Source: Escherichia phage slur07. From it: a stretch of 64,000 bases of DNA. The notes beneath the pieces were generated by a model. The model did not search any database, was not told the DNA's origin, and was given only the letters and a program-made list of their open reading frames with translations. Shown one piece after another: positions 810 to 47,916 of this stretch. Position 1 is the first letter of the stretch; every line of letters begins with the position of its first letter. The DNA lies in the sequence record NC_028780.1; one strand, given 5' to 3'. A program made the translations under genes and the position numbers.

Positions 810-1143
810 AATTTTGGTTTTATGTATAGGATTAATTTCATTTTCTGCGTTAGCAGATACATCATATACTGAAATTAGAGAGTATGTAAACCGTACTGCA
901 GCGGATTATTGCGGGAAAAATAAAGCATGTCAAGCTGAATTTGCACAGAAATTAATATATGCATATAAAGACGGAGAAAGAGATAAATCAAGTAGATACA
1001 AAAACGATACATTATTAAAACGATATGCTAAAAAGTGGAATACCTTAGAATGTTCAGTTGCGGAGGAGAAAGATAAAGCCGCTTGTCATTCAATGGTTGA
1101 CCGTTTGGTAGATTCTTATAATCGAGGATTGAGTACTAGATGA
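802..1143 (+). CDS. secreted hypothetical protein
   Basis: 113 aa; signal peptide (MTKILVLCIGLISFSALA); start overlaps upstream stop; 4 Cys. Confidence 0.45.
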   Translation: MTKILVLCIGLISFSALADTSYTEIREYVNRTAADYCGKNKACQAEFAQKLIYAYKDGERDKSSRYKNDTLLKRYAKKWNTLECSVAEEKDKAACHSMVDRLVDSYNRGLSTR

Positions 1144-1607
1144 TTGTAAAATATATCAAGGGCGATATTGTCGCCCTTTTCGCTGAAGGTAAAAATATTG
1201 CGCATGGATGCAATTGTTTTCATACTATGGGTTCAGGCGTAGCGGGTCAATTAACCAAAGCTTTCCCTAAAATTTTGGAAGCTGATAAATTACAGACTGA
1301 ATGGGGTGATGTAACTAAACTCGGTTCTTACTCAGTCTATGAAAAATACTTTAGGACTCATAAAGCGTATTGCTTTAATCTTTATACTCAATTTCAACCA
1401 GGGCCAAATTTTGAGTATTCCGCTTTAATGAATTGTATGTTAGAATTAAATGAGTTTGGTGAAAATAAACTGATTAAACCTACAATCTATATGCCTAGGA
1501 TTGGTGCAGGCATAGGTAAAGGGAACTGGGATATTATTGAGGGGATTTTAGATACATATTCCTCTAAATTAGAAATTGTGATTGTTGATTGGGAACCGTT
1601 ATTATGA
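1140..1607 (+). CDS. macro-domain protein (TARG1/OARD1-like ADP-ribose binding/hydrolase fold)
   Basis: 155 aa; KGDIVA...NIAHGCNCFHTMGSGVAGQL...MPRIGAGIGKGNW matches TARG1 blocks (KGDLFA / LAHCISEDCRMGAGIA / MPRIGCGLDRLQW); ATGA-coupled start. Confidence 0.7.
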   Translation: MIVKYIKGDIVALFAEGKNIAHGCNCFHTMGSGVAGQLTKAFPKILEADKLQTEWGDVTKLGSYSVYEKYFRTHKAYCFNLYTQFQPGPNFEYSALMNCMLELNEFGENKLIKPTIYMPRIGAGIGKGNWDIIEGILDTYSSKLEIVIVDWEPLL

Positions 1608-1816
1608 ATATACATTATCCACATCCGTATGACCCAAAGAATAAGGCAGTAATTATTCGTCAATGGGAACGCATTTGTCGTACTAAATGTCCAATTAATA
1701 GTCCACATGATGTAGATAAAGACTACATTGGAACATTCGTTGAATATACCTTTATTGATAAGAAAGGTCGTAAACAGCATGTAGAAGAATACTGCTTAAA
1801 GGTGACATGGTTATGA
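1604..1816 (+). CDS. hypothetical protein
   Basis: 70 aa; ATG 1604 overlaps upstream TGA (ATGA coupling); Cys/His-containing. Confidence 0.45.
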   Translation: MNIHYPHPYDPKNKAVIIRQWERICRTKCPINSPHDVDKDYIGTFVEYTFIDKKGRKQHVEEYCLKVTWL

Positions 1817-41495: not shown

Positions 41496-41852
41496 ATGTA
41501 TAGTTCTGAATTTTCATATTTAAAAATGGAAAAAATTTCATACGATTTTATAGATGAAAAGGTTTATTACAGTTTCCATGAACCACGTTTTAATAGTGAG
41601 GTTGGGTTTATTGTAGTAAAAGATAATTTTATTTTAAAAATATATTCAGCATTAAAGGATTTTCATTACGAAAATATTAACCTAAAATTTAATAAAGAAA
41701 ACGTTCGTAATTGCGCAGTAACAATTACAGGAAATAAAGGTACATGTGTTATGCTATCTGATGAAATTAATGATTTGCTAAATGATGCAGAAAATATTAC
41801 TGCACCATCTATTGATGACCAAATTTTTAATGCTTTTATGAATAGAGGTTAA
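41496..41852 (+). CDS. hypothetical protein (61.2 position)
   Basis: 118 aa ORF. Confidence 0.4.
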   Translation: MYSSEFSYLKMEKISYDFIDEKVYYSFHEPRFNSEVGFIVVKDNFILKIYSALKDFHYENINLKFNKENVRNCAVTITGNKGTCVMLSDEINDLLNDAENITAPSIDDQIFNAFMNRG

Positions 41853-42020: not shown

Positions 42021-43049
42021 ATGTCATCAATACCTTGGATTGATAATGAGTTTGCATACCGTGCATTAGCTCATTTACCTAAATTCACACAAGTAAATAA
42101 TAGTTCAACTTTTAAATTACGGTTTAGATGTCCTGTTTGTGGAGATTCAAAAACCGACCAGAATAAAGCTCGTGGATGGTATTATGGTGATAATAATGAA
42201 GGAAATATTCATTGTTATAACTGTAACTATCATGCACCAATCGGAATATATTTAAAGGAGTTTGAACCTGATTTATATCGTGAGTATATCTTTGAAATAA
42301 GAAAAGAAAAAGGTAAAAGTCGTCCAGTAGAAAAACCTAAAGAACTTCCTAAACAACCTGAGAAGAAAATAATTAAATCTCTTCCGTCATGTGTTAGATT
42401 AGATAAACTGGCGGAAGACCATCCAATTATAAAATATGTAAAAGCTCGTTGTATTCCAAAGGATAAATGGAAATATCTTTGGTTTACAACCGAATGGCCT
42501 AAATTAGTTAATAGTATAGCACCCGGAACATATAAAAAGGAAATACCTGAGCCTCGTCTTGTTATTCCAATTTATAATGCTAATGGAAAAGCTGAGTCTT
42601 TTCAAGGACGTGCATTAAAGAAAGATGCTCCTCAAAAATATATAACCATCAAAGCTTATCCTGAGGCAACAAAAATCTATGGAGTCGAACGAGTTAAAGA
42701 TGGTGATGTATATGTTCTAGAAGGACCTATAGATTCACTTTTTATTGAAAATGGTATAGCTATTACGGGTGGTCAATTAGACCTAGAAGTTGTTCCATTT
42801 AAAGATAGACGTGTGTGGGTTTTAGATAATGAACCTCGTCATCCTGACACTATTAAGCGAATGACTAAATTAGTTGATGCAGGAGAAAGGGTTATGTTTT
42901 GGGATAAATCTCCCTGGAAATCAAAAGATGTTAATGATATGATTAGAAAGGAAGGTGCAACCCCTGAACAAATTATGGAATATATGAAAAATAATATTGC
43001 CCAGGGGTTGATGGCTAAAATGCGGTTATCTAAATATGCTAAGATTTAA
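42021..43049 (+). CDS. 61: DNA primase gp61
   Basis: 342 aa (T4 gp61 length); N-terminal zinc ribbon CPVCG...CYNC; TOPRIM EGPIDSLF. Confidence 0.9.
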   Translation: MSSIPWIDNEFAYRALAHLPKFTQVNNSSTFKLRFRCPVCGDSKTDQNKARGWYYGDNNEGNIHCYNCNYHAPIGIYLKEFEPDLYREYIFEIRKEKGKSRPVEKPKELPKQPEKKIIKSLPSCVRLDKLAEDHPIIKYVKARCIPKDKWKYLWFTTEWPKLVNSIAPGTYKKEIPEPRLVIPIYNANGKAESFQGRALKKDAPQKYITIKAYPEATKIYGVERVKDGDVYVLEGPIDSLFIENGIAITGGQLDLEVVPFKDRRVWVLDNEPRHPDTIKRMTKLVDAGERVMFWDKSPWKSKDVNDMIRKEGATPEQIMEYMKNNIAQGLMAKMRLSKYAKI

Positions 43050-43246
43050 ATTAACCCAACTAAAGCAAATGCTAAATCTACGAATGTATCAAGAGTAACT
43101 ACTGGAATATTAATACCATGTGCAATTGCAACAGGTGATAAAATAAAGTTCCAGAGTAAAATTCCTACCATAGCAGAAATAGTAAAAGCTATACGTTTCT
43201 TATTACCTTTTATGGCATTAACAAGTGCCATTAATTTTTGTACCAT
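43046..43246 (-). CDS. antisense small membrane protein
   Basis: 66 aa minus-strand ORF, strong SD (ggagg 5 nt before ATG), two hydrophobic helices; occupies the 61-56 gap. Confidence 0.45.
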   Translation of the reverse strand: MVQKLMALVNAIKGNKKRIAFTISAMVGILLWNFILSPVAIAHGINIPVVTLDTFVDLAFALVGLI

Positions 43247-43259
43247 ATGTCCTCCTTAT

Positions 43260-43283
43260 TGCTTTATATATTTATTGTATAAT
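43260..43283 (+). promoter_or_regulatory. putative MotA-dependent middle promoter for gene 56
   Basis: TGCTTTA 43260-43266, 11 nt, TATAAT 43278-43283. Confidence 0.55.
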
Positions 43284-43317
43284 TAATCTACTAACCCATG
43301 AATTGAAAGGAAAAATA

Positions 43318-43836
43318 ATGGCTCACTTTAATGAATGTGCTCATTTGATCGAAGGTGTTGATAAAGCAAATCGTGCATATGCTGAGTATATTATGCACAG
43401 TATTGACCCATTGCAGGTTATGCTTGACATGCAGCGGCATTTACAGATTCGTTTGGCTAATGATAAACCAGAAACAAATCGTCATCCTGATTCACTTGAA
43501 ACTGCAGGAGAAGTTCTTGCTTGGCTGCGAAACCAAGACGATTATATCGCAGATGAAACTCGCGAGCTATATACTTCTCTTGGTGGTATGAGTAATGGTG
43601 AAAAAGAAGCTTCTGCCGTATGGAAACCTTGGAAGAAACGTTATTCTGAAATGCAATCCAAGAAAATTCAAGACTTATCTCCTGAAGATCAACTTGAAAT
43701 TAAATTTGAACTGATTGATCAATTTCACTTTTTCATGAATAAATTCATTGCTCTTGGAATGTCAGCTGAAGAAATATTTAAACTTTATTATCTGAAAAAT
43801 GCTGAAAACTTCGCTCGTCAAGACAGAGGCTATTAA
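43318..43836 (+). CDS. 56: dCTP pyrophosphatase gp56 (MazG-like)
   Basis: 172 aa from ATG 43318 (MAHFNECAHLIEG...); track start 43225 rejected because it runs through the promoter. Confidence 0.75.
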   Translation: MAHFNECAHLIEGVDKANRAYAEYIMHSIDPLQVMLDMQRHLQIRLANDKPETNRHPDSLETAGEVLAWLRNQDDYIADETRELYTSLGGMSNGEKEASAVWKPWKKRYSEMQSKKIQDLSPEDQLEIKFELIDQFHFFMNKFIALGMSAEEIFKLYYLKNAENFARQDRGY

Positions 43837-44039
43837 TGGCTCGTTTAAATAAACGTCAGCTTAAGAAAGCCCGCAAGAAACGTATTGACCAGCTATTTAA
43901 AGATTATGACAAGGAGCTCGTATGTGAGTTCTTATCTAATCAGCTTCGCAAAGCTTACACAATTAAAACTGGGCATATACCATTAGGCAAGTGGGTACAT
44001 GAAGAAGCCTTAAAATTAATTATAGAGCATTCAAAATGA
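43836..44039 (+). CDS. hypothetical basic protein
   Basis: 67 aa; ATGA-coupled. Confidence 0.4.
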   Translation: MARLNKRQLKKARKKRIDQLFKDYDKELVCEFLSNQLRKAYTIKTGHIPLGKWVHEEALKLIIEHSK

Positions 44040-44245
44040 AATTTAATTTTTATGCATGGCAAAAAGCCGGGAGACCGGCTAGTCGAGCATTTGGTTCTGA
44101 TGGATATAATATTAGAGCCCATTGGAAATTTAATGCTCCAGACGATTATTCTCCGGTAATTATTAACGGCGATGTTGTTATATTAACTAAAATTGGATAT
44201 TTTACCGTTCCGCGAGAATTTATTATAAATAATCATGTAATTTAA
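44036..44245 (+). CDS. hypothetical protein
   Basis: 69 aa; ATGA-coupled. Confidence 0.4.
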   Translation: MKFNFYAWQKAGRPASRAFGSDGYNIRAHWKFNAPDDYSPVIINGDVVILTKIGYFTVPREFIINNHVI

Positions 44246-44261
44246 ATAAAAGGAGAATTAC

Positions 44262-46637: not shown

Positions 46638-46667
46638 GTTTACTTTCCTTTCTAACGATGATATGAT
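46638..46667 (+). promoter_or_regulatory. T4-type early promoter
   Basis: GTTTAC 46638-46643, 18 nt, TATGAT -10 46662-46667. Confidence 0.55.
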
Positions 46668-46693
46668 AGCTTCTGAAGTATACGGAGGCTATC

Positions 46694-47317
46694 ATGATTA
46701 TTAATCTTGCAGATGTTGAACAGTTATCTATAAAAGCTGAAAGCGTTGATTTTCAATATGATATGTATAAAAAGGTCTGTGAAAAATTTACTGACTTTGA
46801 ACAATCCGTTCTTTGGCAATGTATGGAAGCCAAAAAGAATGAAGCTCTTCATAGGCAGTTGAATAAAATCATTAAAAAGCATTTAACTAAATCACCTTAT
46901 CAGTTATATCGTGGTATATCAAAATCAACAGAAGAACTCATTAAAGATTTACAAGTTGGAGAAGTGTTTTCAACGAACAGAGTAGATTCATTTACTACTA
47001 GTTTGCACACAGCATGTGGTTTTTCTTATGTTGAGTATTTCACTGAAATAATATTTCGCTTAAAAACTGATAAAGCTTTTAATTATTCTGACCATATCAG
47101 CGATATTATACTTTCTTCTCCTAATACTGAGTTTAAGTACACGTATGAAGATACTGATGGGCTAGATTCAGAGCGTACTGATAACTTAATGATGATTGTG
47201 CGTGAACAAGAATGGATGATTCCAATTGGAAAGTATAGAATAACTTCTATTTCAAAAGAAAAATTACACAATTCATTTGGAACATTTAAAGTTTATGATA
47301 TTGAGGTAGTTGAATGA
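46694..47317 (+). CDS. modB: ADP-ribosyltransferase ModB
   Basis: 207 aa (T4 ModB length); ART R-S-E signature (LYRGIS ... STxxxxS ... EQEWMIP). Confidence 0.75.
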   Translation: MIINLADVEQLSIKAESVDFQYDMYKKVCEKFTDFEQSVLWQCMEAKKNEALHRQLNKIIKKHLTKSPYQLYRGISKSTEELIKDLQVGEVFSTNRVDSFTTSLHTACGFSYVEYFTEIIFRLKTDKAFNYSDHISDIILSSPNTEFKYTYEDTDGLDSERTDNLMMIVREQEWMIPIGKYRITSISKEKLHNSFGTFKVYDIEVVE

Positions 47318-47916
47318 AATACTCAGTAATGCAACTAAAAGATTTTAAAATAAAATCAATGGATGCATCGGTGCGTGCTTCTATTCGTGAAGAATTACTT
47401 TCTGAAGGGTTTAATTTATCTGAAATTGAACTTTTAATTCATTGTATTACTAATAAACCAGATGACCATACTTGGTTAAATGAAATAATCAAATCTCGTT
47501 TGGTTCCAAACGATAAACCTCTTTGGAGAGGTGTTCCAGCTGAGACTAAACAAGTATTAAATCAAGGAATTGATATTATTACATTTGATAAAGTCGTATC
47601 AGCTTCATATGATAAAAATGTAGCTCTACATTTTGCTTCCGGTTTAGAGTATAACACACAAGTTATTTTTGAATTCAAAGCTCCTATGGTATTCAATTTC
47701 CAGGAGTATGCTATAAAAGCTCTACGCTGTAAAGAATACAATCCAAACTTTAAGTTTCCGGATAGTCATCGTTATCGTAATATGGAATTAGTTTCAGATG
47801 AACAAGAAGTAATGATACCAGCTGGAAGTGTATTTAGAATTGCAGATAGATATGAGTATAAAAAGTATTCAACATACACTATCTATACTCTTGATTTTGA
47901 AGGATTTAATCTATAA
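47314..47916 (+). CDS. modA: ADP-ribosyltransferase ModA
   Basis: 200 aa (T4 ModA length); paralog of ModB with LWRGV ... EQEVMIP. Confidence 0.75.
   Translation: MKYSVMQLKDFKIKSMDASVRASIREELLSEGFNLSEIELLIHCITNKPDDHTWLNEIIKSRLVPNDKPLWRGVPAETKQVLNQGIDIITFDKVVSASYDKNVALHFASGLEYNTQVIFEFKAPMVFNFQEYAIKALRCKEYNPNFKFPDSHRYRNMELVSDEQEVMIPAGSVFRIADRYEYKKYSTYTIYTLDFEGFNL

Follow-up and report, generated by a model that had tools for sequence, protein, structure and literature searches.

Escherichia phage slur07 (NC_028780.1) carries, within the stretch of 64,000 nucleotides that was analyzed here (the window), two adjacent genes for ADP-ribosyltransferases (ARTs), modB and modA, at positions 46694 to 47916, and a gene for a stand-alone macrodomain protein, tk.4, at 1140 to 1607. 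We consider it quite probable that these genes form two independent modules of ADP-ribosylation conflict, with ModB and ModA writing on the host and Tk.4 (now also called AdfM) acting against the host DarTG2 defence, and not a writer-eraser loop of the kind suggested in an earlier note on the same DNA.

In the explanation proposed here, modB and modA would be a translationally coupled early gene pair encoding arginine-specific R-S-E ARTs that act on host proteins. ModA would modify Arg265 of the RNA polymerase alpha subunit, and ModB would modify ribosomal protein S1, EF-Tu and other proteins and also attach to them RNA capped with nicotinamide adenine dinucleotide (NAD), so that the two enzymes together would reprogramme host transcription and translation. 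Tk.4 would protect the phage against DarTG2, a toxin-antitoxin defence of the host, most likely by hydrolyzing the ADP-ribose that DarT2 sets on thymidines of single-stranded phage DNA. The three genes are long-annotated T4 genes, and the counter-defence role of the macrodomain has lately appeared in the literature; these points are already known. The reading of the active site, with Gln84 standing for the lysine of DarG and TARG1, is the addition of the present analysis and is a testable prediction for T4 AdfM.

The modB-modA gene pair

Both genes lie on the plus strand. The first, modB (46694..47317), encodes a protein of 207 residues annotated as an NAD-dependent, arginine-specific ADP-ribosyltransferase and RNAylase of the R-S-E clade. 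The second, modA (47314..47916), encodes a protein of 200 residues annotated as the ADP-ribosyltransferase of the RNA polymerase alpha subunit (Arg265). The stop codon of modB and the start codon of modA overlap by 4 nucleotides (ATGA). The two proteins have the same lengths as their T4 orthologues, with 95% identity for ModB (10 substitutions) and 98.5% for ModA (3 substitutions), and they are paralogous to each other (27% identity over 182 residues, E=6e-17). Gene order, the 4-nucleotide overlap and the upstream region are likewise identical in T4, and all catalytic residues are kept. Arginine-specific transfer to host proteins by the window enzymes was assumed from their identity to the T4 orthologues.

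Scans of Pfam-A and NCBIfam gave zero matches for ModA and ModB, and PF26816, the precomputed family given for Mod homologues, was not recovered by the local Pfam scan. Therefore the identity of the pair was rested on T4 orthology, on PHROG 832 ('RNA polymerase ADP-ribosylase', E=5.6e-42 for ModB and 1e-33 for ModA), on residue conservation and on a fold search.

The R-S-E residues were found in both proteins: R73-G74, S99, S111 and E171-Q-E173 in ModB, and R72-G73, S96-A-S98, S109 and E163-Q-E165, together with F127 and F129, in ModA. The R, S and E-x-E residues are invariant in an alignment of 12 members of the Mod family, including all four serine candidates for an STS-type motif (S99 and S111 in ModB, S96 and S109 in ModA). 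The residues tabulated for T4 ModA (R72, S109, F127, F129 and E165; PMC8120803) are all found in the window protein, and the R73A mutation is known to inactivate T4 ModB (PMC10468400). The substitutions that separate window ModB from T4 ModB cluster at residues 54-58 and 109-121, and include G109 (S109 in T4) two residues ahead of the conserved S111; the R, S and E positions are untouched in both enzymes. The window modB allele is nearest to those of PYps55T/T6-type phages.

An AlphaFold (AF2) model of ModB reached a predicted local distance difference test (pLDDT) score of 89. When this model was compared with the PDB, the top 50 matches were all R-S-E ARTs (probability 1.00, E about 4e-6 to 1e-4), among them iota Ia, Plx2a, Certhrax, Vis, C3, CDTa, VIP2, C2-I, Tre1 and HopU1. 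For ModA, the same fold is predicted from its paralogy with ModB. The earlier note had described two tandem paralogous ARTs bearing the R-S-E signature at 46694-47916, and both statements hold: the coordinates and strand are exact, the genes are orthologues of T4 modB and modA, the signature residues are invariant in the family, and the predicted ModB fold is that of the R-S-E toxin ARTs.

The gap between modA.2 and modB contains two elements on the plus strand. A consensus scan pointed to a sigma-70/T4-early-type promoter-like site at 46639..46667 (TTTACT-17 nt-TATGAT, TG-extended). T4-early-like sites were found ahead of both modB and srd, and the number of sites in the region was not above shuffled expectation; the promoter-like site is therefore a weak indication. 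Upstream of tk.4, the promoter scan gave nothing distinctive. The second element, detected by folding and a stem-loop scan, is a predicted RNA hairpin (46657..46702) that pairs the Shine-Dalgarno sequence (GGAGG) and ATG of modB with upstream sequence. Its minimum free energy is -20.8 kcal/mol (z=-5.1), and 0 of 200 shuffled sequences folded equally well. The promoter-like site and the hairpin are 100% identical in T4, and the 5' arm of the hairpin overlaps the -10 element of the site. Transcripts begun at the promoter-like site might thus lack the 5' arm and leave modB translatable, and read-through transcripts from upstream would have the modB start masked.

Class and active site of Tk.4

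The tk.4 gene (adfM; 1140..1607, plus strand) encodes 155 residues, all of which (155/155) are identical to T4 Tk.4, and its neighbourhood of vs and tk.x genes is also T4-like. Pfam Macro (PF01661) matched at 27.7 bits (cut-off 22), and was the only Pfam match. The sole NCBIfam match, antitoxin_DarG, scored 30.3 bits where the cut-off is 250, and covered positions 2-146 of the 338 positions of the model, which correspond to the macrodomain part; in this match, the DarT-binding C-terminal domain of DarG had no counterpart in Tk.4. The macrodomain assignment made in the earlier note was thus borne out by the Pfam score, by the fold described below and by the identity with T4 Tk.4.

Sequence neighbours of Tk.4 in the PDB were BT1257 (the best, E=1.3e-9), Poa1p, SCO6735, DarG from T. 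aquaticus and TARG1. A model built from a 40-member family alignment had a pLDDT of 95, and a Foldseek comparison with the PDB gave 117 macrodomain-type matches at E<=0.001. The top matches were TARG1, Poa1p, BT1257, DarG (three species) and ALC1, with MacroD-type and viral macrodomains ranking lower; therefore Tk.4 is an ALC1/TARG1-like macrodomain. Profile-profile alignment gave probabilities of 99.1% for DarG/TARG1 and 98.9% for SCO6735/BT1257. In a pattern search, neither the MacroD motifs (Nx6GG[VLI] and G[VIA][YF]G) nor the PARG motif (GGGx6-8QEE) was present in Tk.4. Similarly, the two signature motifs of DUF4804/MavL proteins, [VIL]xGxGxGx[FWY] and WDxx[SA]xPGN[DE][FY][FWY], as defined in PMC10951314, were both absent, and there was no DUF4804 Pfam match.

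With DarG (T. aquaticus, M. tuberculosis) and human TARG1, Tk.4 shares the ALC1-like fold, at template modelling (TM) scores of about 0.74-0.81, and probably the biological target, namely the products of DarT2. However, it has neither their catalytic lysine nor the DarT-binding domain of DarG. Indeed, the catalytic residue K80 of DarG (K84 of TARG1) aligns with Q84 of Tk.4, which is invariant in 40 Tk.4 relatives, and D125 of TARG1 aligns with a glycine. The active site of Tk.4 corresponds to that of SCO6735: in the profile-profile alignment, H22, N25, Q84 and G122/G124 of Tk.4 match H24, N27, Q85 and G126/G128 of SCO6735. All 40 family members keep N25, Q84 and the GxG loop (G124), and the conservation of H22 among them is 90% or more. 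SCO6735 and BT1257 thus have in common with Tk.4 both the fold class and a Gln-type site, with only about 25% identity, SCO6735 being a cellular protein and Tk.4 a phage protein.

SCO6735 carries Gln85 at the lysine position, where the conserved asparagine positions it and where it contacts the ring oxygen of the distal ribose. In hydrolysis of thymidine-linked ADP-ribose, the Q85A mutant has no activity, N27S has almost none and that of G128E is reduced (PMC9411070). The H24Y mutant is also inactive, but this loss was ascribed to disruption of the fold (PMC9411070). SCO6735 protects against DarT and removes ADP-ribose from thymidines in DNA (PMC9411070), and its substrates comprise thymidine- and uracil-linked ADP-ribose (PMC13036486, PMC9411070). 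Judging from the shared residues, we infer that Tk.4 would work by hydrolysis with a Gln84-centred, SCO6735-like active site.

The DarG and TARG1 sequences used for alignment were confirmed against the PDB. The SCO6735 sequence was obtained via a BT1257 query, and its numbering reproduces the published H24, V25, N27, K34, Q85, G87 and K89. A pairwise phmmer alignment of Tk.4 with BT1257 was set aside, as it was ungapped and about 6 residues out of register around Q84. The profile-profile alignments were preferred because they are mutually consistent and agree with MAFFT and with the published equivalence of Q85, K84 and K80. A search of SCO6735 with the C-terminal fragment of Tk.4 gave an alignment that covered the GxG loop only and not the glutamine region.

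Probable counter-defence by Tk.4 and the marks of ModA and ModB

The functional evidence comes from T4, whose Tk.4 (AdfM) is 100% identical to the window protein and lies in the same vs/tk cluster; the window adds an open reading frame (ORF) of 70 residues before tk.3. According to a 2025 preprint, a T4 transposon screen on a DarTG2-expressing host returned tk.4 as the single significant hit, and a clean tk.4 knockout sensitized T4 to DarTG2; the gene was renamed adfM, for anti-DarT factor Macrodomain (bioRxiv 10.1101/2025.11.20.689424). A parallel is offered by the NADAR enzyme AdfN (T4 30.3), an antagonist of DarTG1 (PMC11825919).

Another phage protein called AdfM, gp104 of PhiKZ, was shown in vitro to free DNA of the ADP-ribose that DarT2 has attached (PMC13309987). 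Both gp104 (L004:17518-18006) and Tk.4 are stand-alone phage macrodomains that counter DarTG2. However, gp104 is of the Lys-type (FPTK, like DarG) and shares only 18% identity with Tk.4. In Tk.4, the invariant glutamine (YTQ) goes together with HGCNC, a pattern that resembles SCO6735, BT1257 and Poa1p. Therefore the two proteins named AdfM belong to different subclades. The data support the view that two macrodomain subclasses that differ in mechanism, Gln-type in T4 AdfM and Lys-type in PhiKZ AdfM, were recruited by phages against the same defence.

Several points weigh against Tk.4 being a hydrolase of DarT2 products on DNA. The catalytic lysine of DarG and TARG1 is replaced by Q84. Of the two lysines that position DNA in SCO6735, K34 aligns with S32 of Tk.4, and K89 lies in a loop that Tk.4 lacks, the loop after the glutamine being 5-6 residues shorter. 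Since Tk.4 has neither the catalytic lysine nor equivalents of K34 and K89, its hydrolysis of DNA-linked ADP-ribose is a step that we infer. The anti-DarTG2 phenotype comes from a single preprint (bioRxiv 10.1101/2025.11.20.689424), and an enzymatic assay of Tk.4 itself was not found in the literature. The HxCNC motif of Tk.4 is shared with yeast Poa1p, an ADP-ribose-1''-phosphate phosphatase, so that other or additional substrates are possible. Finally, no reports testing Tk.4 on arginine-linked ADP-ribose were found, and a role of Tk.4 in tuning the phage's own modifications is disfavoured by its class and by genetics.

Alternatively, Tk.4 might counter DarT2 chiefly as an inhibitor that binds the toxin, or as a shield of modified DNA. 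The catalytically dead mutants SCO6735 Q85A, DarG K80A and TARG1 K84A retain an interaction-based inhibition of DarT in vitro, which is strongest for SCO6735 (PMC9411070), and the absence of the catalytic lysine from Tk.4 points in the same direction. However, the catalytic residues of SCO6735 are kept in 40 diverse Tk.4 relatives, as expected for an enzyme; Tk.4 has nothing corresponding to the domain by which DarG binds DarT; and PhiKZ AdfM acts enzymatically (PMC13309987). A mainly non-hydrolytic action is thus unlikely.

Tk.4 could also be a housekeeping enzyme acting on small molecules, that is a Poa1p-like ADP-ribose-1''-phosphate phosphatase or O-acetyl-ADP-ribose deacetylase, with an indirect DarTG2 phenotype. 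The RefSeq record of T4 labels Tk.4 as a phosphatase (legacy 'phosphatase, A1pp motif'). Poa1p is a neighbour both in sequence and in fold (Foldseek ranks 6-11), and the two proteins have H-x-C-N-C in common, as HSCNC in Poa1p and HGCNC in Tk.4; the N-terminal halves align at E about 1e-6 and the C-terminal halves weakly. The active-site residues probed in Poa1p are H23, S30 and F152. At the position of Q84, however, Poa1p has a serine (FTSS), whereas the YTQ of Tk.4 holds the invariant glutamine of the SCO6735/BT1257 type. The recovery of tk.4 as the only significant hit on DarTG2, and the sensitization of the clean knockout, fit a direct role, and the passages of the same preprint that were consulted report no tk.4 effect in a comparison of LB with minimal medium (bioRxiv 10.1101/2025.11.20.689424). 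We therefore regard the housekeeping role as very unlikely, and retain hydrolysis of DarT2 products as the most likely mechanism.

Could Tk.4 reverse the marks set by ModA and ModB? The products of ModB are arginine N-glycosides, which are removed by ARH1 and are resistant to NH2OH, HgCl2 and ARH3 (PMC10468400), and ModA modifies the RNA polymerase alpha subunit at Arg265 (PMC8120803). Enzymes that reverse arginine ADP-ribosylation, and thus the ModA/ModB chemistry, are ARH1/DraG and the macrodomains of the MavL/Larg1/DUF4804 class. The DUF4804 macrodomains (MavL, Larg1, Drosophila CG2909 and CG3568) are arginine-specific and have a PARG-like architecture (PMC10951314). It would be wrong to argue that no macrodomain cleaves arginine-linked ADP-ribose, as the MavL/DUF4804 class does so; the existence of this class means that macrodomains are not chemically barred from this substrate. 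Tk.4, however, has neither DUF4804 motif nor the larger PARG-like architecture, and the ARH/DraG enzymes have an unrelated helical fold.

The known substrates of the ALC1/TARG1-like class are acidic-residue esters and thymine and uracil bases (PMC8120803; PMC13036486), and its TARG1-like members (TARG1, DarG, SCO6735) are erasers of thymine- and uracil-base ADP-ribose (PMC13036486, PMC8120803). On uracil-linked ADP-ribose, ARH enzymes and two Drosophila DUF4804 proteins were inactive (PMC13036486). Since the marks of ModA and ModB are arginine-linked and Tk.4 falls in the base/acidic-residue class, Tk.4 is of the wrong class to reverse them.

The distribution of the two families among phages was assayed by tblastn. 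Tk.4 homologues were found in 2,749 phage records, and the carriers include FelixO1-, PAK_P1-, rV5-, Vi1- and KVP40-like phages, T4-like phages of Acinetobacter and Aeromonas, and actinophages. ModB/ModA homologues were found in 1,011 records, essentially all of them from T-even-like enterobacterial phages of 160-175 kb. At least 1,738 records therefore have the macrodomain and no detected Mod-type ART, a figure that derives from record counts rather than a per-genome matrix and concerns Mod-type ARTs only. As estimated from these record counts, the distributions of the two families are uncoupled.

A self-directed role might still take another form. Tk.4/AdfM might also strip collateral ADP-ribose that Alt, ModA and ModB set on non-arginine acceptors, which might be acidic residues, nucleic-acid ends or bases of phage DNA or RNA. 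We hold this to be highly improbable; if it were true, a functional link between writers and eraser would exist after all.

There remains the proposal of the earlier note that Tk.4 reads or erases the ADP-ribose placed by ModA and ModB (or Alt), through which the phage would tune its own modifications. Writers and macrodomain do occur within one genome, and an arginine-specific macrodomain class exists (MavL/DUF4804, PMC10951314). However, Tk.4 belongs to a class known for esters and bases and has no DUF4804 match of either kind; ARH1, the enzyme that takes off the ModB marks, is a member of another family; the tk.4 ORF and modB are 45,087 bp apart in separate gene clusters, tk.4 being in regB-vs-tk; in at least 1,738 phage records, a Tk.4 homologue occurs with no Mod homologue detected; and the tk.4 phenotype on DarTG2 requires no phage ART. 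In view of the arginine N-glycoside marks, the TARG1-like class, the DarTG2 phenotype and the uncoupled distributions, self-tuning is unsupported, and we consider it extremely improbable. Of the statement that the window holds writers and a possible eraser, the gene identities and a plausible ADP-ribose-erasing macrodomain stand, and the link between this eraser and the ModA/ModB marks does not. The mention in the same note of ADP-ribose installed by ModA/ModB on RNA is a misreading, as ModB joins NAD-capped RNA to protein arginines and does not ADP-ribosylate RNA.

Genomic setting and the two proposed directions of conflict

The identity of ModB and ModA to their T4 orthologues, together with the T4 neighbourhood, identifies the window as a Tequatrovirus (T4/T6-like) segment, roughly from T4 map positions 62 kb down past 12 kb. 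Gene order around the mod genes is the T4 order read in reverse: mrh, srh, modA.4, modA.3, modA.2, modB, modA, srd, dda.1, dda. The 1.7-kb mod region is matched at >=90% DNA identity by 501 phage records, all of T-even type (Escherichia, Shigella, Yersinia and relatives), in which the two genes carry the annotation modB and modA. The best matches of the mod region were Yersinia phage PYps55T (98.5% identity) and T6 (about 98.4%), and those of the tk.4 region were vB_Eco_Some (99.8%) and RB18 (99.6%). Such differing best-match phages along the window (1-64000) are consistent with the mosaic genomes usual in T-even phages.

Some ORFs depart from the T4 arrangement. The 70-residue ORF between tk.4 and tk.3 (1604-1816, plus strand; PHROG 2008) is not in T4, where these two genes abut. 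An ORF of 118 residues (41496-41852, plus strand; PHROG 4122) fills the slot of T4 gene 61.2, which encodes a 208-residue protein. Its similarity to the T4 61.2 protein is confined to the C-terminal ~100 residues (34% identity), with the common ending SIDDQIFNAFMNRG. The RB69 counterpart of T4 gene 61.2 is AdfA, an anti-DarTG1 factor (PMC11825919). Between the primase gene 61 and the mrh cluster (43049-44260, plus strand), neither a dam-sized ORF nor segF, both present here in T4, was seen in this interval. The interval contains gene 56 after a 176-nucleotide gap, followed by small ORFs at 43836-44039 and 44036-44245 (PHROGs 5782 and 5773, 'head protein').

Altogether, the proteins that now share the name AdfM are not one family. 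The corrected reading is that the window shows both directions of an arms race, in which the phage modifies proteins of its host, the host modifies the DNA of the phage, and the phage probably removes these host marks, rather than a phage regulating its own ADP-ribosylation.

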